From NCBI GenBank assembly GCA_963724765.1, contig CAVRVY010000004.1, positions 864,001 through 928,000 of the forward strand: a DNA stretch of 64,000 nt, written 5' to 3'. The notes beneath the pieces were generated by a model, which was given only the letters and a program-made list of their open reading frames with translations, ran no database searches and was not told where the DNA came from. The position numbers and the translations under genes were made by a program. Origin of the DNA: an uncultured delta proteobacterium. GTDB taxonomy: Bacteria > Desulfobacterota > Binatia > Binatales > Binataceae. The first letter of the stretch is position 1, and every line of letters begins with the position of its first letter. Shown in pieces: positions 4,560 to 54,916 of the stretch.

Positions 4560-5879
4560 CTAGCGGCCCCGCGGTGCGGCCGGGCCTGCGCTCGCCGCCA
4601 CATGCTGCTGTAGCGCGCGAACGCTGATACCGAGTTTGCGCGCGGCCGCCGTCCGGTCGCCGCCGCATACCACCAGCGCCTGCATCACCATCTCGCGCCG
4701 CATCCGGAACGGACTCGACTTCCAGATCGAGGGAGCGATAAGAGGTCCGACGAGTTCGGGGCGGAGGTCGTCGGCTTCGATAAGCTGGCTCGCGCCGTCG
4801 TGCTGCAGGATCGCGAACCGCGTAACCAGATTGTGCAGCTCGCGCACGTTGCCCGGAAATGGATAGTTGCCCAGCGCCCTGAGCGCTCCAGGCGTGAAGC
4901 TCAGTTGGGACGCCGCGACGCGCAGGAAGCCGGCTGCGAGCAGCCCGATGTCGTCGCGGCGCTCGCGCAACGGTGGCACTCCCAGGGTCAGAACGGCGAG
5001 CCGGTCGTAGAGCTCGCGCCTGAACCGGCCCTTCAAGACCATCGGCCCCAAAGGCCGGTTGGTCGCCGATACCAGGCGGGCGCCGGGCCGGATTTTTCCA
5101 ACCTCGGAATCGCTCGCCACGGAATCACCGGCTCTCAAGATCGCGCGCAGCACTCGGCTCTGCGAGGCGGGTGAAAGTTCCGAAACCTGGTCGAGGAACA
5201 GCGTGGTGCCAGAGGCCGCGCACAGCTCGTCGAGCCGGTTTTCGCCGCCCGCCGCGCCGCGCACGGCATCGCCGGACGCATCCTTTTCAGGGCCGCGATC
5301 AACCCTGCGCGGTCCCAGGGCAGGATCGTTGAGTGCAGCGCAGTTGACCGAAGACATTCCGCCAGCGCGTCCGCTGGCGGCGTGAATCAGACGCACCAGC
5401 AATTCCTTGCCAGTGCCTGTCTCGCCGGTCACCAGGATCGGCGAATCCACCTGCCCTGCGCGTGTAGCGGCGCGAATGACCGCGAACATCGCGGCGTCGG
5501 CGGTCAACAGCGGCGGAGAAAGTCCGAAAGCTTGCGAGACGATATAACTCGCCGCGGCCCACACGCCGCCGGGTCCTTCGAATTCGATTGCGTCAATCCT
5601 ATCAGCGCGCCCGTCGGCGCGTTCGATCCGCAACCGCGCCGTGGAACCGCCAGCTCGACCGTCTGCCGCAAACGATTCGAACGCTTCGACCGATTCGACG
5701 CGTATCGTGGCGCGCTCGCGATCGTTTGGCGCAAGCAATTCGATTCCCAATCCCGAGAGCAACGGTTCCATCGATCGCGGCAATGCCGGCGCCAGCCAGA
5801 CCCTTTCGCAGCTCGTATGCGCGCTGCCCGTCTTCTGAATTTCAGTCTTCGCGATTTCAGTCTCCATGTGATCTTTCAT
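4560..5879 (-). CDS. Degenerate sigma54-dependent (NtrC/Fis-type) transcriptional regulator
   Basis: GETGTGKE Walker A, ATNRPL, FPGNVREL, C-terminal Fis HTH; GAFTGA loop absent, Walker B reads LFLDQV; start uncertain (GAGGG precedes ATG 5879). Confidence 0.8.
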   Translation of the reverse strand: MKDHMETEIAKTEIQKTGSAHTSCERVWLAPALPRSMEPLLSGLGIELLAPNDRERATIRVESVEAFESFAADGRAGGSTARLRIERADGRADRIDAIEFEGPGGVWAAASYIVSQAFGLSPPLLTADAAMFAVIRAATRAGQVDSPILVTGETGTGKELLVRLIHAASGRAGGMSSVNCAALNDPALGPRRVDRGPEKDASGDAVRGAAGGENRLDELCAASGTTLFLDQVSELSPASQSRVLRAILRAGDSVASDSEVGKIRPGARLVSATNRPLGPMVLKGRFRRELYDRLAVLTLGVPPLRERRDDIGLLAAGFLRVAASQLSFTPGALRALGNYPFPGNVRELHNLVTRFAILQHDGASQLIEADDLRPELVGPLIAPSIWKSSPFRMRREMVMQALVVCGGDRTAAARKLGISVRALQQHVAASAGPAAPRGR

Positions 5880-12917: not shown

Positions 12918-12958
12918 CGGCGCTCTTTATTTCCTGCGCGCAAGTGCGCGATAAATAA
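12918..12958 (+). repeat. Promoter-region direct repeat, copy 1 (copy 2 at 15356-15395)
   Basis: CGGCGCTCTTT...CTG.GCGCAAGTGCGCGATAAATAA; final 21 nt identical in both copies, each about 35-40 nt upstream of a start codon. Confidence 0.85.
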
Positions 12959-12997
12959 AGGTGGAGCGCAAACGACTTCCGTCAAACGGAGGACCCG

Positions 12998-13540
12998 ATG
13001 GCACGGCTCAGTTCGATCCCATTTGAAAAAGTCGATCCGGAGCTGCAGGCGGTCATGCGCGAGTATGACGTAGAACTCGGCGGTTCCGGATTTGTCCAGG
13101 TCCTGGCCCACGCACCGGAGGTCTTCAAAGACTTCATCAAATTTTACTTTCCTTTGGTCAGCACCACGCGTGGATCGGTCAACATGAAGTTGACGGAACT
13201 CGCCCGCCTCAAGGTTGCGGAAAAGAATGAGTGCGGCTTGTGAATGGGCGCCAGGTTTGCCTTGGCAAGGCAACAAGGACTGACCGAAGAACTGGTCGCT
13301 GAACTACCTCATTTTGAAAGCAGCCGAAAACTGACAGGCCAGGAAAAAGCGGCGATTCGCTTCGCCGAGATACTTGCGGGCGATCATCGGCAGGCCTCGC
13401 AGCAAACCTTCGATGTCTTGCGCGAGCATTTTACCGAAAGCGAGATCGTCGACCTCGGCTTCAGGATAGTGACCTTCGTCGGCTACGGCCGCTTGATTCA
13501 CGCCCTGGGTCTGGAGATCGGAAAGACCTGCCCGCTGTGA
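12998..13540 (+). CDS. Carboxymuconolactone decarboxylase / AhpD-like protein, probable selenoprotein (Sec at TGA 13241-13243)
   Basis: Two in-frame ORFs (12998-13243, 13244-13540) join into one CMD fold: ELARLKVAEKNEC-G-L-[TGA]-MGAR...EKAAIRFAE...LREHFTESEIVDL; TGA sits at the second Cys position of CxxC; GGAGG RBS before 12998. Confidence 0.82.
13255..13274 (+). promoter_or_regulatory. Candidate bacterial SECIS hairpin
   Basis: Perfect 7-bp stem TTGCCTT(13257-63)/AAGGCAA(13267-73), loop GGC starting with G, 20 nt after the TGA. Confidence 0.6.
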
Positions 13541-13642: not shown

Positions 13643-15082
13643 TTATCGATGAAGCTCCTCTAGTTTGCTGATATCGTACAAATTCAAGACCTCCTGTGCA
13701 GTCGGGACGGGAAATCCGACTCCATAACCGATGATGATCGTACCGCGGCTGTTCTGGAGGTCCATCACGGGTACGCCCGTGAAAGTCGTGGAATGGGCGC
13801 CCTGGTTCATCTCGGACCATTCGTTCGTATAGGTCTCGCTCCACTTCTTAGGATATTCCCAGATTTTCCACAATTTTCCGCCACGATCGAAGGCTACCTC
13901 GAACCAACTATCCCAGTTTTCCGAATCCCAGAAATTGAGCACGGCGCTATAGGGCGCGCGTGGGTCGATTGGCGTGCGTTCAATCACCGCGAATTTGCGC
14001 ATTGACCAACCCGGATCGTTCACGATGAGACCGTTCGTCCCGTAGCAGTGCAGGTAGAGCTTCTGCTGATCCATCAGCCCCAGAACCTCTTTCCAGCCGA
14101 GGAATTTCCACTTCCAGTCGAGCTCGCGGTCGGCGAACCCGTAAAAGTCGGCGATAGTATGATCGGTACCCATCATCGAATCAGACTTAACCTCGGCGGA
14201 AATGCGGCGCACGCGACGGAGCTGCGGAATATAGGCCCAGCCGTCGTCGGGACGATGAGGGTCGCTGTAGCGATAGACTATGAAAACCGTCCCACGAATA
14301 TCGAACGGCGCCTGAAACCCGGTAAACTCTTTGAACTCAAACAGTTTGGCGTCTGGCACTGGCAGTAGACCGCCATTCTTTTGCTCTTGTGCCAAGTGAC
14401 TGAAATAGACGCGGCGGTAATATGCTCCCAGGTTTCGCTGAAAGGAGCCTCCACCACCATATTCCTCGCTGATGTTAGGCGGAAAACGGGTTTTGATATT
14501 GAAGCCGGCAAGCCATTCCGAGGGCACTTCAGGAACTATCGACGGCTGCTCGCCGCTATGTTCGCCACCGAAACGAACCCAAGTCAGATTCCAGCTCACG
14601 CCGATGAGGCCAAAATTCTGCCAGCGATACTCGAAATTCCAGGCAGCCTTTAATCCTGAATCGGAATCTTCGGTACTCAGAGAGGCGTCGGAAAAGGGCT
14701 GTCCGCATACGTAGTTGGCCATGGTGCCATCTGGATTGAGCCTCACCTGGCTCTGATACTTCTCGGTGCACTCCATGTAGTCTTTACGCGGCTGGTGGCT
14801 TTGGACCCGTTGAACAGCCAGCTTGAACTCTGGAAAGTCAAGCTGCTCGATGAACCCCGGAATTATGAAGGGCCGCAGCTTGTCCGTGTCTTTCGAAGTC
14901 AGCACGTCGCCCGGCTTGAAAGCCGGTTTGGCATCTTGGTACTGATGCAGCCACTTGAGATAGGTGTCGAGAGTAAAAGTCTGAATGGCCTGCGCACTGG
15001 CGGGTGGTGCTTTAAGCGCAACGGTCAATAGCAAAAGGAGGAACCAAAACGATCGCACTCTTCGCAATTTCCTACTCTGCAT
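13643..15082 (-). CDS. DUF1329 family exported protein
   Basis: Signal peptide, G.PF...KAAWN, WAYIPQLRRVRRIS, FDRGGKLWK motifs; AAGGAG RBS before ATG 15082; visibly more AT-rich than flanks. Confidence 0.85.
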   Translation of the reverse strand: MQSRKLRRVRSFWFLLLLLTVALKAPPASAQAIQTFTLDTYLKWLHQYQDAKPAFKPGDVLTSKDTDKLRPFIIPGFIEQLDFPEFKLAVQRVQSHQPRKDYMECTEKYQSQVRLNPDGTMANYVCGQPFSDASLSTEDSDSGLKAAWNFEYRWQNFGLIGVSWNLTWVRFGGEHSGEQPSIVPEVPSEWLAGFNIKTRFPPNISEEYGGGGSFQRNLGAYYRRVYFSHLAQEQKNGGLLPVPDAKLFEFKEFTGFQAPFDIRGTVFIVYRYSDPHRPDDGWAYIPQLRRVRRISAEVKSDSMMGTDHTIADFYGFADRELDWKWKFLGWKEVLGLMDQQKLYLHCYGTNGLIVNDPGWSMRKFAVIERTPIDPRAPYSAVLNFWDSENWDSWFEVAFDRGGKLWKIWEYPKKWSETYTNEWSEMNQGAHSTTFTGVPVMDLQNSRGTIIIGYGVGFPVPTAQEVLNLYDISKLEELHR

Positions 15083-15272
15083 AGTCCCACTCCTTGTCGG
15101 CCAAAGGTGGACGTAACACGCTCGCTGGCGCGATGCTGTCGCATGGTAGGGAGGAAAGGAATTTCCTGGATCGGCACTTCGCGTAATCCTTCGAGAGGGG
15201 TTCCCTCCCCCGAATAGAGCACCGAGCACCTGTAACAGCCGCATATCACAGTCAACCTGAGCCGTCAAACCG

Positions 15273-44404: not shown

Positions 44405-45727
44405 ATGAATGTCAATCTTGAGAGCCCTTCGGCGCTTCGGCGCAAACTGACCATCGAACTCGAACCGGCCGAGATCAAGACCGAACTCGACCGCGCTTAC
44501 AATGACCTGCGCCGCAACGTGGTGCTCAAGGGCTTCCGCCCCGGTCACGCGCCACGCACGATGCTCGAGCGCCTGTTCGGCGACCGAGTCCGCGGCGAGA
44601 TCGTGCAGAAGCTGATCAAGGAATATACTGACAAGGCGCTGGAAGAGCAGAACTTGAAGCCCCTGCTGGCGCCGGAGATCGTCACCGAGGAAAGCGACCT
44701 CGCCAAGGCGCTGCGCTTCAGCGCGACCTTCGATCTGCGCCCCGAAATAGTGGTGCGCGACTACCAGGGCCTGCGCGTGCCGCGGCCGCAAGTCCAGGTC
44801 AGCGACGAAGAAGTGCAGAAGATGCTCGAGGAGCTGCGCGAGCGCTCGGCCACGCTCAAGAAGGTCGAAGAACGCACGCGGGTCGAGCGCGGCGACCTGG
44901 TGCTGGCGGAAATCGAGGGCCACGTCGACGGCAAGCCGCTGGAAGGTGCGAAAATCGGCCAGCGCATCCTCGAAGTTTCCCCCGAGCGCCTCGCCCATGG
45001 GCTCGACGAGGTGCTGGCTGGGGCCGAAGTCGGGCATCCGGCGCACGCGACGCGCAGCTACGCGGCCGACTACGCCGAGAAAGACCTCGCCGGAAAAAGC
45101 GTCGAGTGGCGCGCGGCGGTCAAGGAAATCTACATCAAGGTGCTGCCGGCGCTCGACGACGAATTCGCCAAGGACCTGGGCGACGTCGCCTCGCTCGACG
45201 AGTTGCGCGCCAAGGTGCGCGAGCAGCTGATGCAACGTGCGAGCGAGGAGGCCGACATGCGCGCGCGCCAGGGACTGCTCGACCTTGTGATCGAGCGTAA
45301 CCCGGTCGAAGTGCCGCAGTCGCTCGACGATCGCGAGCGCGAGCTGATGGAATCCGAGATGACCGGCGCGCTGATCGGTGCGGGGATGCCGCGAGAGGCG
45401 GCGGCCGAGCGGGTGCGCAACAGCGCGGAGGAAATTCACACGCGGGCGCACAAGCGGGCACTCAGCTCACTCATCGTCGACGCGATCGCCGAGCAGGAAA
45501 AAATCGAAGTAAGCGACGACGAGCTGGCCGCACGGGTCGCGCAGATCGTGACCCGCAGCTCCGGACGCGAGCGTGACCACGTGGCCGAGCACTACCGCAG
45601 CGAGGAGCATCGCGCGCTGCTCAAGCAGTCAATGCGGCGCGAGAAAACGCTCGACGCTTTGCTCGAGCGCGCGCAGTCGGAAACCGGGGACGCGGCCGGC
45701 GAGGCGCCCTCGGACGCACAGGCGTAG
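44405..45727 (+). CDS. tig: Trigger factor
   Basis: KGFRPGHAP ribosome-binding motif, LPALDDEFAK; upstream of clpP. Confidence 0.95.
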   Translation: MNVNLESPSALRRKLTIELEPAEIKTELDRAYNDLRRNVVLKGFRPGHAPRTMLERLFGDRVRGEIVQKLIKEYTDKALEEQNLKPLLAPEIVTEESDLAKALRFSATFDLRPEIVVRDYQGLRVPRPQVQVSDEEVQKMLEELRERSATLKKVEERTRVERGDLVLAEIEGHVDGKPLEGAKIGQRILEVSPERLAHGLDEVLAGAEVGHPAHATRSYAADYAEKDLAGKSVEWRAAVKEIYIKVLPALDDEFAKDLGDVASLDELRAKVREQLMQRASEEADMRARQGLLDLVIERNPVEVPQSLDDRERELMESEMTGALIGAGMPREAAAERVRNSAEEIHTRAHKRALSSLIVDAIAEQEKIEVSDDELAARVAQIVTRSSGRERDHVAEHYRSEEHRALLKQSMRREKTLDALLERAQSETGDAAGEAPSDAQA

Positions 45728-45834
45728 CGGCACGCCGCAGATTTCAGGTTGCCGCGCTATCTCAAACTGGATAGAATTTTACGTGGGGTGCCTGCACGGA
45801 GAAATCATCGCCGGCCGCGCCGAGCCGGGGTCTT

Positions 45835-46431
45835 ATGAGCAGCCTGATTCCGATGGTCGTCGAACAGACTGGCCGCGGCGAGCGTGCCTACGATATATAC
45901 TCTCGCCTGCTCAAAGACCGCATCGTTTTTCTCGGCACTGAAGTCAATGACGACGTCGCCAACCTGGTGACCGCGCAGTTTCTATTCCTGGAGTCCGAGG
46001 ACCCGGAAAAAGAGATCAGCTTCTACATCAACTCGCCGGGCGGCTCGGTCACGGCGGGCCTGGCGATTTACGACACCATGCAGTTCATCAAGCCTCCCGT
46101 TTCCACGCTATGCCTGGGACAGGCGGCGAGCATGGGTGCGGTGCTGCTGACGGCCGGCCACAAGGGACGGCGGTACGCGCTGCCGCACTCAAGAATTATG
46201 ATTCATCAGCCGCTCGGCGGCGCGCAGGGTCAGGCGGTCGACCTCGAGATCCAGGCGCGCGAAATTTTGCGCATGCGCGAAGAGCTCAACAACATCTTTG
46301 TGCGCCATTCCGGGCAGAAGCTGGGCAAGATCGAGAAGGACACGGACCGCGACATGTTCATGTCACCCGAGCAGGCGGTTGAATACGGACTGATCGATGA
46401 GGTAATCGTTAGGCGGGGGTCCTCCAAGTGA
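45835..46431 (+). CDS. clpP: ATP-dependent Clp protease proteolytic subunit
   Basis: [29 protein letters not shown]. Confidence 0.98.
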
Positions 46432-46450
46432 AGGGCGGTGGGAGGCATTA

Positions 46451-47701
46451 ATGGCCAAGCATGACGACCGCTCGGGCAACCTGGTCTGCTCGTTCTGTGG
46501 CAAGAGCCAGGATGAAGTCCGCAAGCTGATTGCGGGCCCGACGGTTTATATCTGCGACGAGTGCATCGACCTCTGCAACGACATCATCGCGGAGGAGACC
46601 GATAGCGAAGAGGCCTTCAGCCAGACCTCGGCGGTGCCCAAGCCGGCCGAGATCAAGCGCGTACTCGACCAGTACGTGATCGGCCAGGAGCGGGCCAAGA
46701 AGATCCTCTCGGTCGCGGTGCACAACCACTACAAACGCATCGACTCCCAGATGGTGACCGGCGAGGTCGAGCTGCAGAAGTCCAACATCCTGCTGATCGG
46801 CCCGACCGGTGTGGGCAAGACCCTGCTGGCGCAGACGCTCGCGCGTTTCCTGCAGGTGCCCTTCACCATCGCGGATGCGACCTCGCTGACCGAGGCCGGC
46901 TACGTCGGCGAAGACGTCGAGAACATCATCCTGTCGCTGCTGCAAAACGCCGACTACGACATCGAGCGCTGCCAGCGCGGCATCGTCTACATCGATGAAA
47001 TCGACAAGATCGCGCGCAAGGGCGACAATCCCTCGATTACGCGCGACGTCTCGGGCGAGGGCGTGCAGCAGGCGCTGCTCAAGATCGTCGAAGGCACGAT
47101 GGCGAGCGTGCCGCCCAAGGGCGGCCGCAAGCATCCGCAGCAGGAATTCCTGCAGGTCGACACCACCAATATCCTGTTCATCTGCGGCGGCGCCTTCGTG
47201 GGCCTCGACGACATCATCCGGCGGCGTATCGCGGGCAAGACGATGGGCTTTCGGGCCGACCTCTCCCATCGCGATCCCAAGACGGTCTCCGAGCTGCTCA
47301 ACGAAGTGCAGCCCGAGGATCTGCTCAAGTTCGGGCTGATCCCGGAATTCGTCGGACGCCTGCCGGTAATCGCGACGCTCGGCGAACTCGACGAGGACGC
47401 GCTGGTGCGGATTCTGACCGAGCCCAAGAACGCGCTAGTGCGCCAGTATCAGAAATTGTTCGACATGGAGAACGTCCACCTTAAATTCACCCAGGGGGCG
47501 CTGCGCGCGATCGCGCGCGAGGCGCTCAAGCGCAAGTCGGGCGCCCGCGGCCTGCGTGCTATAATGGAAGCCATCATGGTGGACCTGATGTACGAGATTC
47601 CCTCACAGCCCAACATCAAGGAGGTTCTGATTTCCGAGGAGGTGGTCACACAGAAGGAACAGCCGTTGCTGGTTTACCAGAAAACCGCCGAAACCGCCTG
47701 A
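46451..47701 (+). CDS. clpX: Clp protease ATP-binding subunit
   Basis: CSFCGK Zn finger, [21 protein letters not shown]. Confidence 0.98.
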
Positions 47702-47723
47702 ACATCTCAGGAATTGATAACCG

Positions 47724-50216
47724 ATGCTTTTTCGCAATGACAAGGACAAGAACGACAAGAAAGACGGCCGCGACGCGCAGAGCGATACAGTTCCGCTTCT
47801 GCCCTTGCGCGAGTTGATCGTTTTCCCGCACCAGGTTTACCCGATCTTCGTCGGCCGCCAGAAGTCAATCAAGGCGCTGGAAGCCGCCGAGGCGCGCAAG
47901 CAGCCGATCTTGCTGGTCGCACAAAAGGACGCCAAGGTCTCCGACCCGGGCCCGCAGGACATCTACGCCACCGGCACGCTGGGCGTGGTGGTGCAGTTGC
48001 TGCGCCTGCCCGACGGCACCGTCAAGGCGCTGCTCGAAGGCAAGCGCCGCGCGCGTATCGTGCGCTACGCCACCGAGGAGGAATATTTCCAGGTCGAAGT
48101 CGAGCCGATCGAAGAGGTCTACGATCGCACGACCGAGGTCGAGGCGCTGATCCGTTCGGTCAACGCGACCTTCGACAACTACGTACGCCTGAACAAGAAG
48201 ATCCCGCCCGAGATGGTCACCTCGATCGCTGCGGTCGACGATCCCGCCTACCTGGCCGACAAGCTGGTCGAACATCTGGGCATCAAGCTCGAGGACAAGC
48301 AGGCGCTGCTCGAATGCGCCAATCCGGCCGAGCGGCTGGAGAAGATTCTCGGTTACATGCGCTCCGAACTCGAAATCCTGGAGGTCGAAAAACGCATCCG
48401 CTCCCGGGTCAAGAAGCAGATGGAAAAGACCCAGAAGGAGTACTACCTCAACGAGCAGATGCGGGCGATTCAGAAGGAATTGGGCGAGAAAGACGAATTC
48501 AAGAACGAGATCCAGGAGCTCGAAGAGAAGCTGCGCCAGAAAAAGATGCCGGCCGAGGCTCGCGAGAAATGCGAGCGCGAAATCAAAAAGCTCAAGATGA
48601 TGTCGCCGATGTCGGCCGAGGCGACCGTGGTGCGCAACTACCTCGACTGGTTCCTGGCCCTGCCCTGGTTCGAGTACACAGAGGACAAGCTCGACATCAA
48701 GGAAGCCGAGCGCATCCTCGAGGAGGACCACTACGGGCTGGAAAAGGTCAAGCAGCGCATCCTCGAATACCTCGCGGTGCAGACCCTGGTGGGCCAGATG
48801 AAGGGTCCCATCTTGTGCCTGGTCGGGCCGCCAGGTGTGGGCAAGACTTCGCTCGGAAAATCGATCGCGCGCGCCACCGGGCGCAAGTTCGTGCGCGTCT
48901 CGTTGGGCGGAGTGCGTGACGAGGCGGAGGTCCGCGGCCATCGCCGAACCTATATTGGCGCGCTGCCCGGCAAGATCATCCAATCGATGCGCAAGGCGAG
49001 CTCGGGTAACCCCGTGATGTTGCTCGACGAGGTCGACAAGATGTCGACCGACTTCCGCGGCGACCCGTCCTCGGCGCTGCTCGAAGTGCTTGATCCCGAG
49101 CAGAACTGCACCTTCAACGATCATTATCTCGATTGTGACTACGACCTGGCCAAGGTGATGTTCGTCACCACCGCCAACACGCTCGAGCGCATCCCGCGCC
49201 CTTTGCAGGACCGGATGGAAATCATCCGTATCCCGGGCTACACCGAGACCGAGAAGCTCAATATCGCCAAGCGCTACCTGGTGCGAAAACAGCGCGAGGC
49301 CAACGGGCTGAAGGAGGAGAACATCGAGTTCTCCGACCAGGCGATTCTGCAAATCATCCGGCTCTACACGCGCGAGGCCGGAGTGCGCAACCTGGAACGT
49401 GAGATCGCCTCGATTTGCCGCAAGGTCGCGGTCGAGGTGGTCAAGACAGACCGTAGCGCGCACGTCCGCGTCTCGGCTTCCAGCCTGGCCAAGCAGCTCG
49501 GCCCGCCGCGCTTCCGTTACGGGATGGCCGAGACCGAGCCGCAGGTCGGCATGGCAACGGGTCTCGCGTGGACCGAGATGGGCGGCGAGTTGCTTGGGGT
49601 CGAGGTCACCATCGTGCCAGGCCGCGGCAAGCTGACCGTGACCGGGCAACTGGGCGAAGTGATGCAGGAGAGCGCGCATGCGGCGCTGTCGTACATCCGC
49701 TCACGCGCTGACACGCTGGGACTGGCGTCCAGCTTCTACCAGAAGATCGATATCCACATCCACATTCCTGAAGGCGCGACGCCCAAGGACGGCCCCTCAG
49801 CCGGCATCACCCTGGCGACGGCGCTGGCCTCGGCGCTGTGCCGCGTACCGGTGCGCAACGATCTGGCGATGACCGGCGAAATCACGCTGCGTGGACGCGT
49901 ACTGCCGATCGGCGGGCTCAAGGAAAAAATCCTCGCGGCTCATCGCGGCGGCGTCAAGACCGTGCTCATCCCCAAGGAAAACGCCAAGGATGTGGACGAT
50001 ATCCCGGCGCCAATTCTGAAAAACGTGACGCTCATCCAGGTCGAGCACATGGACGAGGTGCTACGCCACGCCCTGGTGCTATCGGACCCGGAGGCGTTCT
50101 TCAAGGTCAAGCCGGCCGCCATTGACTACCGCACGGCGGCCGAGAGCAAGGAAGAGCTGGTGGATGACGAGGCGGAGGACGACTCCACTATCCCCTCGCC
50201 CACCAATTTGTCCTGA
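47724..50216 (+). CDS. lon: Lon protease
   Basis: [26 protein letters not shown] catalytic Ser. Confidence 0.98.
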
Positions 50217-50306
50217 GGCTCGGCAACGGGGGAACCGCGCGCGCACCGCACACGCCGATGGGCGCGCCGTAACAAGCCCAATGGTACGGGGGGCGGGAGG
50301 GACTAA

Positions 50307-50624
50307 ATGACAAAGGCCGAACTAATCGAGGGACTGGCCAATAAGCTCAACCTCAACAAGGCCGAGGCCGAGAAGGCGGTCAACCTCCTACTCGACGACA
50401 TCGTCGCTGCGCTCAAACAAGGTGAGCGGGTCAATATCTCGGGCTTCGGGACGTTTTCGGTTTCTGAGCGGGCTTCGCGGGTAGGGCGCAATCCGAAGAC
50501 CGGCGAAGCGATCCAGATTTCGGCCAGCCGCTCGGCCAAGTTTCGCGCCGGCAAACAGCTCAAGGATTCTCTCAACGACGCCGCTCCCGGCGGCGGCTCG
50601 CAGGCAAGTCCTCCACCGGCCTGA
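50307..50624 (+). CDS. hup: HU family DNA-binding protein
   Basis: MTKAELI, GFGTF, GRNPKTGE. Confidence 0.93.
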   Translation: MTKAELIEGLANKLNLNKAEAEKAVNLLLDDIVAALKQGERVNISGFGTFSVSERASRVGRNPKTGEAIQISASRSAKFRAGKQLKDSLNDAAPGGGSQASPPPA

Positions 50625-50831: not shown

Positions 50832-50906
50832 GGGCGGTTAGCTCAGCGGTAGAGCATCGGCCTTACAAGCCGAGGGTCGCAGGTTCGAAACCTGCACCGC
50901 CCACCA
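50832..50906 (+). tRNA. tRNA-Val (anticodon TAC)
   Basis: GGGCGGT acceptor stem, D arm, TCGGC-CTTACAA-GCCGA anticodon arm, GTTCGAA T loop, encoded CCA. Confidence 0.97.
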
Positions 50907-51029
50907 ATGAAATCAAGGCCTTTCTGAGGAACAGAGAGCGCCCATTGAGCGCCGGTGCCATTAGGGTGCCATCTTTACCCGAGTCCCCAGAGGCCACAGC
51001 ATCATCGCGAGTGCCTTGCACGCTGCCGA

Positions 51030-51238
51030 ACACGCGTGCCGAATCCGGCCCACCTGGCGAGTACGCGCTCATCATGGCGACGATCGCGGTCGTGGTCTAC
51101 AGCGCCTACCGTAAGTTGGGCAACAACATCGGTTCGCTCGCCAGTGGCGTCGATTCCGCTCTGGCCAACTCGCAAGCAGGCCGAGCGGCAGCGGCAAATC
51201 ATCGACGAAATTCCCAAGGAGATAGCCAGACCCCGTGA
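51030..51238 (+). pseudogene. Flp/Fap (type IVc) pilin remnant
   Basis: EYALIMATIAVVVYSAYRKLGNNIGSLASGVDSAL pilin helix; leader corrupted (SGPPGEY instead of GxxxxEY); no convincing start. Confidence 0.7.
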
Positions 51239-51751
51239 AGGATAGCGCACCTGATGACGCGCAGGAACTATGGCTTCTGGCCGCCTGGGTTGTGTGGGTC
51301 ACGTTCCGCCTCGCCCCGCACCCCGTCAGGCCTGTGAGGAGCATCCATGCTTGGCGGGCGACGATACTTGTCTCGCGGTCGGGCTAGCGGTGTGGATGCT
51401 TCACGGCGCGCAAATCGCGGTGCGCGTGCTCGATATCAAACCAGCCCCGCCAGTCGTCACCAGCTATCGCCTTGACCGCGGCTGAAACCGGCCCATAGCC
51501 CCCAGGAGCCGATGTGGGCCGTCCGCCCGCTCGGGACGCTCCCGACCCCTGCTTCGCCAGCCCGGAGGCACCAAGAATTAACGACAAAATTATTGGCGCA
51601 CGTTCCCGCGGCCTAGCCGGCCGGCAATCGACACGATATGAGACGGGGCGGCCCTTCTTACGGCATCTCGCGCGTATTCGCGTGTGGCTTGAAATCGAAG
51701 CGGGACCGCCATGGAACGCGGCCCCGCTTCGAGGTGTTCACGCAAAGCGGC

Positions 51752-52342
51752 TCACGGGAGGGTCACGCTTGTTTTCCCATTGGCTTCGGCCCATTGAAAG
51801 AAACCGAGCCCGCCCGCAGGTGGCGCCAGAGTGAAGCCGACCTCAGTGTAGGTGGAGCTCCCGGTCGCGCCTTTGTATATGCCCGTGCCGGCGAATAGCG
51901 TGTCGGTCTCGGTTACAGTGAATTCTCCGCTTGTAAGGTTGATACAGCCGCTTCCCGAGGCACCGCCATAGAAAGTAGAGCCAAGGGGTCCATCAACTGC
52001 GGAGGCCGATCCTATGAAATCAAGATTCACACCGGTTTCGCTTTCACCGAAAACACCAGTGAAGCTGCAGGAGGTAGTGCCTTCGCTGTATTCACTCACC
52101 GACTGAAAGCTATAAGCGCCACCCAAAATTGGCTTCTTCGGGAAAATAGACGTTCCTGAGCCCGTGCCCAGGGCGGCAGTCGAAGTCGTGTCAGCTGTGT
52201 CGAAACTGAACGACCCGCCCATGCTCACGGCCGTGCCTCTGGAATGGAACGTACCCTTGAAGGTTTTCGCATCAGCCTTTGGCGCCAGAAACACTCCCAC
52301 TGAGAGAGCCAGGACCACGATACCCGTTAGCTTCGAAAGCAT
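51752..52342 (-). CDS. Secreted beta-rich hypothetical protein
   Basis: GGAGG RBS, signal peptide ending ADA, AGTG.YKGATG motif reminiscent of dirigent/AOC-like barrels. Confidence 0.72.
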   Translation of the reverse strand: MLSKLTGIVVLALSVGVFLAPKADAKTFKGTFHSRGTAVSMGGSFSFDTADTTSTAALGTGSGTSIFPKKPILGGAYSFQSVSEYSEGTTSCSFTGVFGESETGVNLDFIGSASAVDGPLGSTFYGGASGSGCINLTSGEFTVTETDTLFAGTGIYKGATGSSTYTEVGFTLAPPAGGLGFFQWAEANGKTSVTLP

Positions 52343-52767
52343 CGCTCTACCTCCCTGTTAGGGTTGATTCTCAGCGTAGCCGGGAAACCGGCAGCGGCCA
52401 CAAGGCAAGGCGTCCGACGCTCAATTAAGACCACCAAAGCTCAGTTATAGTTTGTGCACGTTAACGTCAAACACTCGGTCTTGTGCGATGGCTTCGCGGG
52501 GTCCTCCGAATTTCGTAAAAGTTCCCGGGACCACGGGACCCCACGCGCGAAACGCGATCGCGATTTTTGGGGGTACCCTGGCCCGACCTGGCAAAGCATC
52601 CTTCGAAAGGACAGTCCCCGCCGGTGCCAAACTCGGTGCCGAACTAGCGCCAACCGGGCATCTCACTGCTTACTACTCAGTACAACTCAAAGTAAGGATG
52701 GGCCGTATATCGACTGAGGTTTTGAGATGGAGCGCGCTATAGATACTGGACTATTTGCGGGCCAGTT

Positions 52768-52815
52768 TCGGCCTTACAAGCCGGTCGCAAATTCGAAACC
52801 TGCACCGCCCACCAA
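52768..52815 (+). repeat. att-like degenerate copy of tRNA-Val 3' part (50857-50907)
   Basis: TCGGCCTTACAAGCCG-GTCGCAaaTTCGAAACCTGCACCGCCCACCAA; 3-nt deletion and 2 mismatches relative to the tRNA. Confidence 0.92.
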
Positions 52816-52924
52816 GTACCGACGGCCTCTCGTGAATATGCGGCTTGCGCAGCTGACGCGAGTCGCAGACGAGTCGCAATCTGGGGTCGCCTTGAGCCAG
52901 AGCGGGGATCACTGTACAGGCTGT

Positions 52925-53212
52925 CTCAAGGTGAGCGGAGTAAAGCGCGTGGTGAATGAACTGCAGGTGTAGCCGAGCGCGCAGCAGAACGCTGTCAATG
53001 CGAGCGACGACGAGATCCAGCGTCAGGTCAGGAAGGCTCTCGACGATCATGGGTTCAATAACCTCGGCTTGGACGTGCGCAACGGCGTCGCGCGTTTGAC
53101 GGGGCACATTCCAACCGAAGCGCGGTATCTAGAGGCCGCTGTCGTAGCGCGTTCGGTCCGAAGCATGCGCGCGCTCGAAGACGACCTGCGCCTTCGGGCG
53201 GGCGATCATTAG
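52925..53212 (+). pseudogene. BON-domain (OsmY-like) protein remnant
   Basis: KVSGVKRVVNELQV*PSAQQ...DDEIQRQVRKAL...LDVRNGVARLTG...LEDDLRL; in-frame TAG at 52970-52972; 5' part missing. Confidence 0.78.
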
Positions 53213-53451
53213 CCCAGCGCGGCAGCGCCCCGACATCACACATCTCCTTATGCAAAAGCGATACGCGGCAAGCTTAAAACCTGTTCTCTGGGGCACTAAT
53301 AGTCAACTTGAAACCCTGGCCGCGCTTGTCGCGAAGCGAGCAATATCGGAATGTGGACTAAATGAATGCATGAACGTATGAACAGCGCAGATGTATTGGG
53401 TAACCTGATCATGTGACTGAACAATGACTTGACCGACAGGAAGACAGTATA

Positions 53452-53631
53452 ATGAGCGGAACCAGCGACAAGATCAAAGGCCGTGTAAAGGAAGCAGTGG
53501 GTGTTTTAGCCGATGACCAACGTTTAAAGGACGAAGGAAAGCTGGACCAGACCACCGGTAAGATCAAGGAGACCGTGGAGAGCGTGATCGACAAGGCAAA
53601 GAATGCTGTAAAGGGTCCCGCGAAAAAATAG
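53452..53631 (+). CDS. CsbD family stress protein (59 aa, below ORF-track cutoff)
   Basis: MSGTSDKIKGRVKEAVGVLADDQRLKDEGKLDQTTGKIKE. Confidence 0.9.
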   Translation: MSGTSDKIKGRVKEAVGVLADDQRLKDEGKLDQTTGKIKETVESVIDKAKNAVKGPAKK

Positions 53632-53762
53632 CATTTCTTCCGCTACCACAGTAACCAAAACCGATTCGTACCGGAGTAATGATCATGAAGAAGATGAAGA
53701 AAAGCACAACCAGGTTCGTCGCCATGACCGCGAAGGGCGTGCAATTAATGATAGCGCCATTA

Positions 53763-53912
53763 ATGATTAAGAGGGTTGCGTTGATTCTCGCGACGGTGTT
53801 GATGGCGAGCTGCTTCCCCATGGAATCTCGCCCACAGCAGCAGACCACCACGACGACAACCACTACGTGCCCCCCGGGGACGCAGCTTGGTAGCGATGGG
53901 ATATGTCGCTGA
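53763..53912 (+). CDS. Small predicted lipoprotein with Thr run and C-terminal Cys pair
   Basis: MIKRVALILATVLMASC lipobox-like; TTTTTTTTCPPGTQLGSDGICR; start uncertain (53679 possible). Confidence 0.55.
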   Translation: MIKRVALILATVLMASCFPMESRPQQQTTTTTTTTCPPGTQLGSDGICR

Positions 53913-54130
53913 GCAGTGAGGCAAACGTCATAACATACCGACAATTCAGATTCTGCGGCTACTCTCCACTAGAGGTCGTCGCGCGAACGCCCCCAACGAT
54001 GCCCGGACCACGCGAATCCCTGCTTGCTTAAGTTGATTCCGAGAGTTGCCGCTTGTTTGTTTCATTCCTACCCTGTCGCGCATACGTTTAGGAGAAACTG
54101 GACATCGATAGATACAGTTCGCGCCTAAAC

Positions 54131-54316
54131 TTGGCCTTGCTGGTCGGTATGATGCTCGGCGCTGCGGGGACTGTACTGGCGCGGCAGGCGCTACCCAATA
54201 ATCCGGGGAAACAAATGTCGATATTCAAAGGCACAGTGGCACAATACTCGCTCACGCCGCGCGGCGACGTGGACGGCCTGATGCGGCGGATTTCGACCTT
54301 GGCCTGGCCCCTCTAA
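54131..54316 (+). pseudogene. Truncated exported hypothetical protein
   Basis: KGTVAQYSLTPRGDVDGL motif resembles the N-terminus of a longer conserved hypothetical family (from recall); ORF ends shortly after it. Confidence 0.45.
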
Positions 54317-54517
54317 ACGGGATCGAAGGGATAAGACGTAATACCAGCTAATTCTGTTCCAGAAGGTAGCGACACGCATTGACTATAAGTTCGTGAACGT
54401 CGGCCTCGGACAATATTCCTTGTCGTTGCGATACGGTGCCGGACTCATTTCAATGTAACTGAGAGATTATGAATTTCCATTTAGTAAGATGGTTCCGTTG
54501 GTCGTAGTCCGTGACTT

Positions 54518-54916
54518 ATGAGACGCTTAATCAAAATAGAAATTGGATCTGTCGGCAGTCGGATAGTGAGGATTTTGGCAGCGCTGCTTTTCGCGACTCT
54601 GGCGACGGGTTGTTACGTCGGCGGTCCCGGTTGGTGGGGTGGTCGAGGTGGAGGCTACTACAGCGGCGCAGGCGGCTATTACGGGAGCAACTACTACGAG
54701 AGGAACGTCTATCGGGGCTACGGCGGGCATCCGGAGTCCGGTATGTTCGGCGGCTATCCGCCGGCTCACGAAGCTTGGGACGCGAGCAGCCGGGGCAGGG
54801 CCAGCTATGGCAGCGGAGGCGGATCGAGGGGCGGACATAGCGGCGGGGGAGGCGGTGGACACACCGGCGGCTCCGGAGGCGGCGGACATGGTGGAGGCGG
54901 CGGTCATGGCCACTAA
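54518..54916 (+). CDS. Glycine/tyrosine-rich predicted lipoprotein
   Basis: Hydrophobic segment ending LATGC, GGYY repeats, SSRGRASY and Gly/His tail. Confidence 0.62.
   Translation: MRRLIKIEIGSVGSRIVRILAALLFATLATGCYVGGPGWWGGRGGGYYSGAGGYYGSNYYERNVYRGYGGHPESGMFGGYPPAHEAWDASSRGRASYGSGGGSRGGHSGGGGGGHTGGSGGGGHGGGGGHGH

Follow-up and report, generated by a model that had tools for sequence, protein, structure and literature searches.

A probable AhpD-like selenoprotein gene, split in annotation at an in-frame UGA, in an uncultured Binataceae bacterium

Bacterial gene callers treat UGA as a stop, and a selenocysteine (Sec) codon is therefore liable to be mistaken for the end of a gene. Is the single TGA that separates two abutting reading frames in the genome of an uncultured Binataceae bacterium such a case? 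The locus lies in a stretch of 64,000 nucleotides (hereafter the window; GenBank assembly GCA_963724765.1, contig CAVRVY010000004.1, positions 864,001 to 928,000 of the forward strand), where two in-frame open reading frames (ORFs) occupy 12998..13243 (81 aa) and 13244..13540 (98 aa) of the + strand with only TGA 13241-13243 between them, the second beginning at the codon directly after this triplet. Reading the TGA as Sec (U) gives a product of 180 residues that contains the sequence KNE-C79-G-L-U82-M-G-A-R and ends in GKT-C178-P-L. The original prediction, made from the sequence alone, had proposed that the two ORFs form one selenoprotein gene followed by a hairpin resembling a selenocysteine insertion sequence (SECIS). 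Having compared the locus with its relatives, we conclude that it is very probably a genuine selenoprotein gene that annotation has split, encoding a 180-residue AhpD-like (COG2128/YciW-type, CMD fold) thiol/selenol oxidoreductase with the active-site motif Cys79-Gly-Leu-Sec82.

The codon found at position 82 in homologous genes provides the first line of evidence. A search of genome contigs with tblastn, matching residues 1-180 across the TGA, returned at least 600 stretches, at least 489 of which encode a relative, and the best 80 loci (L001-L080) were analysed. Together with the window they make up 81 homologous sequences, 44 with TGA and 37 with TGC or TGT at codon 82; all 81 thus have either Cys or the conserved TGA at this position, as had been anticipated. 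The close loci (L001-L041, 52-98% identity) come mostly from Binatia/Binataceae metagenome-assembled genomes, with some from Gammaproteobacteria, and those nearest to the window (L001-L004) are 97-98% and 88% identical to it. TGA is present in 39 of these 41 loci and TGC in two (L020, Nevskia; L024, Rhodospirillales), so the uniform TGC or TGT among close relatives that was named beforehand as the mark of a recent mutation or read error is not seen. Among the distant loci (L042-L080, 34-41% identity) the codon is TGC in 30, TGT in 5 and TGA in 4 of 39, the TGA carriers belonging to Dehalococcoidia (L043), Methylomirabilia (L060) and Rokubacteria (L067 and L073). With Cys in the homologues at this place, the TGA does occupy the second Cys position of the CxxC motif.

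Sequence conservation does not stop at the TGA. In every close row, residues 1-81 and residues 83-180 have much the same identity to the window (89/89 for L004, 74/73 for L008 and 63/63 for L022), and therefore both halves are selected as protein. Moreover, the codon following the TGA is in many loci not a start codon (AAG, AGG, ATC, ATA, ATT, CTG or CAG), which excludes a conserved restart. TGA ends 18 of the 42 Pfam-supported ORFs in the window and is also the stop of the selenoprotein gene, showing that the code has not been reassigned. The window had four further in-frame TGA candidates, which were rejected as wrong-frame composition or merely adjacent genes, and a scan of 45 loci for in-frame TGA codons yielded solely extra copies of the AhpD-like family.

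Public gene calls bear the imprint of the same codon. The read-through product, used as a query against proteins, matched 177 of 263 candidates at E <= 0.001; 120 of these matches were listed, and 29 of the 120 were aligned. Only 12 of the listed matches cover 98-100% of the query, the other 108 covering 42-61%. Six full-length proteins in the aligned set have Cys at position 82 (C-R-L-C), and twelve half-length proteins start at the Met right behind it. Because these half-length records begin after the TGA, gene callers must routinely cut the gene there, and the suspicion that annotation pipelines split it proved well founded. Named matches are labelled 'hypothetical protein', 'alkylhydroperoxidase family enzyme' or 'carboxymuconolactone decarboxylase family protein', and JGI names the halves 'alkylhydroperoxidase family enzyme'. 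Three public records in the aligned set (P0011-P0013) show Trp at the Sec position (C-F-L-W); most simply, their contigs were called under a code in which TGA means Trp.

The predicted structure likewise treats the two frames as one. The Pfam CMD family (PF02627) matches residues 40-124 with 33.2 bits against a cut-off of 23, crossing the TGA, and an AlphaFold2 model built from an alignment of 44 rows (33 close, 11 distant) is all-helical with 11 helices (mean predicted local distance difference test score, pLDDT, 93.1; predicted template-modelling score, pTM, 0.87). Match and model both span the TGA, and the two abutting ORFs indeed make a single 180-aa CMD-fold protein. Searched against the PDB with Foldseek, the model gives template-modelling (TM) scores of 0.80-0.81 over ~174 columns to 2prr, 2oyo, 6k40 and 6ohj, which identifies an AhpD-core fold. 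By sequence the nearest solved protein is PA0269 of Pseudomonas aeruginosa (E 4.4e-21, query positions 39-167). Glu67, Cys79 and U82 align with Glu36, Cys48 and Cys51 of PA0269, residues that are assigned, in passages of the published description, to the proton-relay/redox set of PA0269 and of Mycobacterium tuberculosis AhpD (MtAhpD; PMC3141380). In the 44-row alignment Glu67, 12 residues before the first Cys, is conserved in 44 of 44 rows, Cys79 in 42 and U/C82 in all 44; the other conserved polar residues are Arg70 (44/44) and His130 (43/44). Cys178, near the C-terminus, is invariant in the close clade in Sec and Cys forms alike and mostly missing from the distant clade. Two close relatives (L034 and L037) have the motif S-A-K-P-U at codons 76-82, having lost Cys79 and kept Sec82 and the C-terminal Cys178 (G-G-P-C-P).

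The features of the locus, all on the + strand, are as follows.

12988..12993, + strand: Shine-Dalgarno-like GGAGGA, 4 nt ahead of the ATG; L001-L003 share the block CAAACGGAGGACCCGATG with the window letter for letter.
12998..13540, + strand: the whole, very probable selenoprotein gene (AhpD-like/CMD fold), 180 codons and a stop, delimited by read-through, PF02627, the fold model and the equal conservation of both halves.
13232..13234, + strand: TGC codon of Cys79, first residue of the CxxU motif; Cys in 31 of the 33 close rows and in all 11 distant ones; pairs with PA0269 Cys48.
13241..13243, + strand: in-frame UGA, very probably read as Sec82; TGA in 44 of the 81 homologous sequences and TGC or TGT in 37; pairs with PA0269 Cys51.
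13257..13273, + strand: SECIS-type hairpin with a 7-bp stem and the apical loop GGC at 13264-13266, recognised by its conservation, its covariation and its absence, at this register, from all 37 Cys-codon homologues.
13529..13531, + strand: codon of Cys178 in the C-terminal G-x-x-C-P-L tail, a candidate third redox residue; present in 33 of 33 close-clade rows, its role putative.
13538..13540, + strand: true stop TGA, without a comparable hairpin (best downstream stem 5 pairs, loop ATC).

If the UGA is decoded as Sec, a SECIS element should follow it. The hairpin TTGCCTT-GGC-AAGGCAA at 13257-13273 has 7 perfect Watson-Crick pairs and a folding energy of -6.4 kcal/mol when taken alone. The bSECISearch model asks for an apical loop ~16-37 nt from the UGA with a G among the first two loop bases; here the loop GGC begins 20 nt after the UGA. 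The original prediction had described a perfect 7-bp hairpin with a G-initiated loop 20 nt downstream, and this description stands for the hairpin itself and for the distance from UGA to apical loop; the stem, however, begins 13 nt after the UGA. Hairpins of this kind are not rare, as ~0.9% of positions on the + strand are followed, at a distance of 16-37 nt, by a perfect hairpin of at least 7 bp whose first two loop bases include a G, and a qualifying hairpin lies behind 14 of the 812 + strand TGA triplets in the window. Judged from this one sequence, the hairpin is weak evidence; it is the comparison with relatives that lifts the case well above chance.

Counting the U of the UGA as nt 1, the relatives display the hairpin in two registers. 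Register A (nt 17-23 paired with 27-33, nt 24-26 forming the loop GGC) occurs in the window, in 31 close loci and in the distant L060, L067 and L073, and register B (nt 14-20 paired with 25-31, with a 4-nt loop GGTC, AGTT or AGGT at nt 21-24) in 8 loci, mostly gammaproteobacterial. At least 6 of the 7 pairs can form in one or the other register in 43 of the 44 TGA sequences, and the exception, L043, has a 7-bp stem whose loop, GGTCG, begins at nt 25. The 37 Cys-codon sequences all fall short of 6 pairs, forming 5 at most in either register.

The stem is preserved by compensatory change. Register A was counted on 29 of 32 sequences, leaving aside L010, L011 and L028, which over 60 nt are identical to L007/L012 and L026. 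Its apical helix is 90.6% paired, with 4 pairs changed on both sides and a covariation that 0 of 500 shuffles equalled. A lower helix (nt 7-12 with 37-42) was merely 56% paired and was dropped; the two helices together were 75.8% paired, compared with 40-49% in controls with slid partners. In register B, all 8 sequences give 96.4% pairing with 2 compensatory pairs. A further set of 15 sequences, chosen to represent each distinct stem variant (10 from register A, 3 distant TGA loci and 2 second-copy paralogues), is 97.1% paired; 5 of its 7 pairs show compensatory change, none of 500 shuffles scored as high, and slid controls were paired at 37-51%. The selection of this set for diversity puts its share of covarying cells above that of an unselected set. 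Some of the compensatory changes alter the protein (Arg to Ala or Gly, Gln to Arg), as where F-A-L-A-R-Q becomes F-A-L-A-A-R in L014-L016, and such changes would be hard to explain by protein constraint alone. Conserved with compensatory changes, tied to TGA and missing from Cys-codon homologues, the hairpin behaves as the SECIS-like element that it had been taken for. Six Cys-codon loci of Novosphingobium type (L044, L045, L054, L055, L058 and L066) have in common a different 7-bp hairpin, with a GAAGA or GAGGA loop 31 nt from the Cys codon, which could be a relic SECIS or reflect simple shared ancestry.

The distribution of the two codon states on a phylogeny suggests in which direction they were exchanged. 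In a maximum-likelihood tree of the 44 rows, midpoint-rooted only and with codon states read from the aligned codons, the Cys rows P0002, P0004, P0006, P0008, P0009, L020 and L024 form one clade (support 100/99). This seven-row clade is nested within a clade of 33 rows (97/92), of which the other 26 carry TGA, and the distant TGA clade (L060, L067 and L073) has the same hairpin geometry. On the simplest reading, Sec with this SECIS would be old in the family and would have been replaced by Cys more than once. Several genomes have two TGA-bearing copies: OY761159.2 (L008 and L022), CBDDQA010000005.1 (L009 and L023) and CAVWXK010000001.1 (L036 and L037). In two further loci a second, diverged CxxU paralogue (H-N-A-C-T-L-U-R-G-A-V-Y) adjoins the first, in tandem in L014 (TGA at 5834, +) and divergently in L018 (TGA at 4602, -), each second copy being followed at the same distance by the same 7-bp hairpin with a GGC loop.

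Several results weigh against this account, and it is mainly because the Sec machinery was not seen that our confidence is not higher. ARAGORN found tRNA-Val alone and no tRNA-Sec in the window, and SelA, SelB and SelD families were matched by none of its 45 scanned ORFs (Pfam; 42 of the 45 had some match). E. coli K-12 SelA, SelB and SelD likewise had no tblastn match in the window and the 80 loci, whose 825,721 bases are a small sample of each genome, and tRNA-Sec was found in none of the 45 loci scanned with ARAGORN, a small part of each genome in which silence is not absence. The hairpin is not conspicuous in single-sequence folds, which over 45 and 60 nt did not stand out from shuffles (z = +0.59 and -0.65). 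Nor does any Rfam family match the hairpin: at gathering score the window has only tRNA-Val, and at E <= 10 near the site a chance snoRNA match. The shuffle controls used for covariation also overstate independence, as the sequences are related, and the slid-partner controls are the fairer ones. At the level of the protein, the fourth member of the relay is His55 in PA0269 and His137 in MtAhpD, a residue described as invariant in the sequence set of PMC3141380. The family studied here has Arg86 at this place, four positions beyond the second Cys, in 43 of 44 rows, the remaining row having Asp. His130, conserved elsewhere in the protein, might substitute for the relay His. The scores of the window protein against curated NCBIfam models lie below the cut-offs (46.1 against 81.8 for TIGR01926, peroxidase-related enzyme; 54.8 against 310 for NF053654, YciW-related (seleno)protein); all 44 members have these two models as their best NCBIfam matches, and by the curated rule the proteins are a related subfamily that belongs to neither. 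Finally, the 42 sequences compared (the 41 close loci and the window stretch) share no neighbouring gene for a redox partner such as a peroxiredoxin or thioredoxin.

How else might a TGA come to stand here? A Cys-type CMD gene might recently have suffered a nonsense mutation, or been misread in sequencing, so that the locus would be a pseudogene; Cys-codon homologues do exist, with TGC in L020 and L024 and Cys in P0002-P0009. The same TGA, however, recurs in 43 other loci, given as independent assemblies, down to 35% protein identity, and both the equal constraint on the two halves and the covarying hairpin that goes with the TGA speak against decay; we give this explanation practically no weight. 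Alternatively, translation might terminate at the UGA and reinitiate, by coupling, at the adjacent AUG, giving two small proteins that assemble non-covalently. The window and many relatives do have an ATG directly behind the TGA (MGAR, MHAR, MNAR), and public gene callers list the C-terminal half as a protein; but the next codon is AAG in L014-L016, AGG in L019, ATC or ATA in L022-L031, CTG in L032-L033 and CAG in L034. Such a split would moreover sever the CxxC motif and a helix within one domain, and it leaves the Cys homologues and the TGA-linked hairpin unexplained, which makes it highly improbable in our judgement.

A further alternative accepts read-through and disputes the residue inserted. 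The UGA might be read as Trp or Gly under a reassigned code, by near-cognate read-through or by Cys insertion, with the hairpin acting as a mere read-through stimulator. The Trp of the CFLW records P0011-P0013 would fit a reassigned code, and the failure to see Sec machinery in the window or in the loci scanned also speaks for this account. It is opposed by the ordinary use of TGA as a stop in the window, this gene included, and by the finding that 37 of 37 non-TGA homologues have Cys, forming the classic Sec/Cys pair; we regard it as improbable. A split-annotated selenoprotein gene remains, in our view, by far the best account of the locus.

How would such a gene be expressed, and what might its product do? 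By the mechanism established for bacteria, SelB loaded with Sec-tRNA(Sec) would bind the mRNA hairpin at 13257-13273 as the ribosome meets the UGA at 13241-13243, and Sec would be inserted at residue 82; the second TGA (13538), behind which there is no such hairpin, would terminate translation. The product would thereby depend on SelB and contain selenium. By homology to MtAhpD and PA0269, Sec82, standing in place of the second Cys of CxxC, would attack an oxidised substrate or partner, candidates being a peroxide and, on a partner protein, a sulfenic acid or a disulfide. Cys133 of MtAhpD, the equivalent of Sec82, is the attacking residue in that enzyme. Both Cys130 and Cys133 of MtAhpD are described as catalytic in the relevant passages of PMC3141380. 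The adduct would then be resolved as a selenenylsulfide with Cys79, and possibly with the invariant Cys178, whose conservation makes a role as an additional or alternative resolving residue plausible, in line with the resolving thiol suggested in the original prediction. Glu67 would form part of the conserved acid/base relay, with Arg86 in the place where the family usually has His.

The kind of gene described here has been known for two decades, and the window gene is a new, unannotated member of it. That AhpD/CMD-like CxxU selenoproteins had been described already was recognised in the original prediction, and published marine metagenome and review listings agree, as far as their relevant passages go. 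The Sargasso Sea survey of 2005 lists an 'AhpD-like protein' (COG2128, 27 sequences) and a 'CMD domain-containing protein' (Pfam02627, 4 sequences) with CxxU (PMC1088965). The Global Ocean Sampling (GOS) analysis of 2008 lists 'AhpD-like 1' (COG2128), with 299 selenoproteins and 902 Cys homologues, and 'AhpD-like 2' (pfam02627), with 70 selenoproteins that were more abundant in non-marine samples (PMC2398784). By these two papers the AhpD-like family is one of the most frequent selenoprotein families of ocean metagenomes. In passages of genome surveys and reviews the family appears again (PMC1794560; as COG2128 (YciW) in PMC9312934; as TIGR01926 in PMC13188914), and it serves as the browsing example in the description of BSepDB (PMC13326102). 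The window protein has in common with the AhpD-like selenoproteins of Zhang, Gladyshev and co-workers the CxxU motif with Sec second, the fold family and widespread Cys homologues. It differs by Arg at the position of the relay His and by its invariant C-terminal Cys-Pro tail, neither of which is mentioned in the published passages concerned. Most probably it represents a diverged subfamily of the AhpD-like (COG2128) selenoproteins; the published examples were compared by description, and supplements could list the subfamily. On selenoproteins or selenocysteine use in Binatia/Binatota, our literature search found nothing relevant beyond a mention in a reference list.

Solved structures place the protein among Cys-containing enzymes. 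PA0269 (2ijc, 2o4d and 7xw1), an AhpD-like weak hydroperoxidase, is the best solved match by sequence and has TM scores of 0.77-0.82 normalised to the target. It differs in its length of 145 residues, its Cys-Cys pair and its His55 where the window protein has Arg86, and it has no counterpart of the first ~38 residues or of the C-terminal Cys tail. A group comprising the 'uncharacterized peroxidase-related' AhpD-core proteins 2prr, 2oyo and 2pfx, Deinococcus radiodurans AhpD (6k40) and Bmp8 (6ohi and 6ohj) gives TM scores of 0.78-0.81 over 174-192 aligned columns and sequence E values of 3e-12 to 5e-6, at an identity of merely 16-19%, and all are Cys proteins. Bmp8 is a debrominase by the title of its structure entry, an indication that the fold is capable of reductive dehalogenation instead of peroxide reduction. 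MtAhpD (1gu9 and 1lw1) has the same two-helix CxxC motif and the Glu-Cys-Cys relay logic set out in passages of PMC3141380. It differs in topology (TM 0.38-0.44, Foldseek E ~1), and the window gene, for its part, has no adjacent ahpC and has Arg in place of the relay His.

These comparisons allow a more specific, tentative model, which as a whole we consider unlikely. The protein may operate a three-residue selenol/thiol relay in which Sec82 pairs with Cys178, perhaps across the subunits of an AhpD-type oligomer, with Cys79 dispensable, as in L034 and L037, and Arg86 replacing the relay His. Taken with the strong structural likeness to Bmp8 and the lack of a peroxiredoxin partner, such a relay might point to a reductase chemistry other than AhpC recycling, and Sec use might be routine in Binatota, a phylum without cultured members, often with at least two paralogues per genome.

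The surroundings of the gene vary among its relatives. In the window its neighbours are an RND (resistance-nodulation-division) pump (HlyD_D23, ACR_tran) and DUF1329; the pump lies upstream in the window, L001, L003 and L004, and the downstream DUF1329 gene is kept in the window and L004. A Leu/Phe-tRNA protein transferase gene is the neighbour in L006-L012 and a short-chain dehydrogenase gene in L021-L031. The latter is the commonest neighbour (11 of the 42 sequences), further neighbours among the loci being glutathione S-transferase (GST), luciferase-like and enoyl-CoA hydratase genes, and none is conserved across clades. The G+C content at third codon positions (GC3) is 0.66-0.70 in the selenoprotein gene and 0.63 in the convergent DUF1329/LolA-like gene (13643-15268), compared with 0.8-0.9 in the flanking genes.

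A scan for promoters and terminators picked up nothing promoter-like; the single terminator-like site, within the gene but on the opposite strand, does not exceed chance expectation. Upstream of the gene, 38 nt ahead of the ATG, lies an AT-rich inverted repeat, CTTTATTTCCTGCGC / GCGCGATAAATAAAG (window 12925-12960), whose 15-nt arms are 80% complementary with a spacing of 6 nt. It has no T-run after the stem in either orientation and is only in part kept in L001 and L004; it might serve as an operator or mark where the transcript of the RND operon ends.

Elsewhere in the window, a housekeeping cluster at 44405-50624 (trigger factor, ClpP, ClpX, Lon and HU, then tRNA-Val) shows that the stretch is chromosomal. 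Just 3' of the tRNA-Val gene (50832-50906), GC content falls from ~0.63 to 0.48-0.57 over 50900-54600, a segment with no long ORF of the genome's GC3 pattern and with a Pfam match in none of 7 ORFs tested. It may be a foreign or decayed insert at the tRNA gene, or a long non-coding stretch.

In summary, the gene adds no new kind of system, and its value lies in the repair of annotation and in a few testable particulars of the active site. It is mis-annotated wherever it is present, and no curated NCBIfam selenoprotein model reaches the subfamily. A Sec-aware model of the subfamily would mend hundreds of gene calls that are now split in Binatia, Gammaproteobacteria, Rokubacteria and marine metagenomes, and would also flag the carrier genomes as Sec users. 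The variants of the active site (Arg for His, the C-terminal Cys and the loss of the first Cys) lend themselves to simple mutational tests. For the family as a whole, the locus offers a well-sampled case of exchange between Sec and Cys, with a Cys clade nested in a TGA clade and the geometry of the SECIS hairpin kept down to 35% protein identity.

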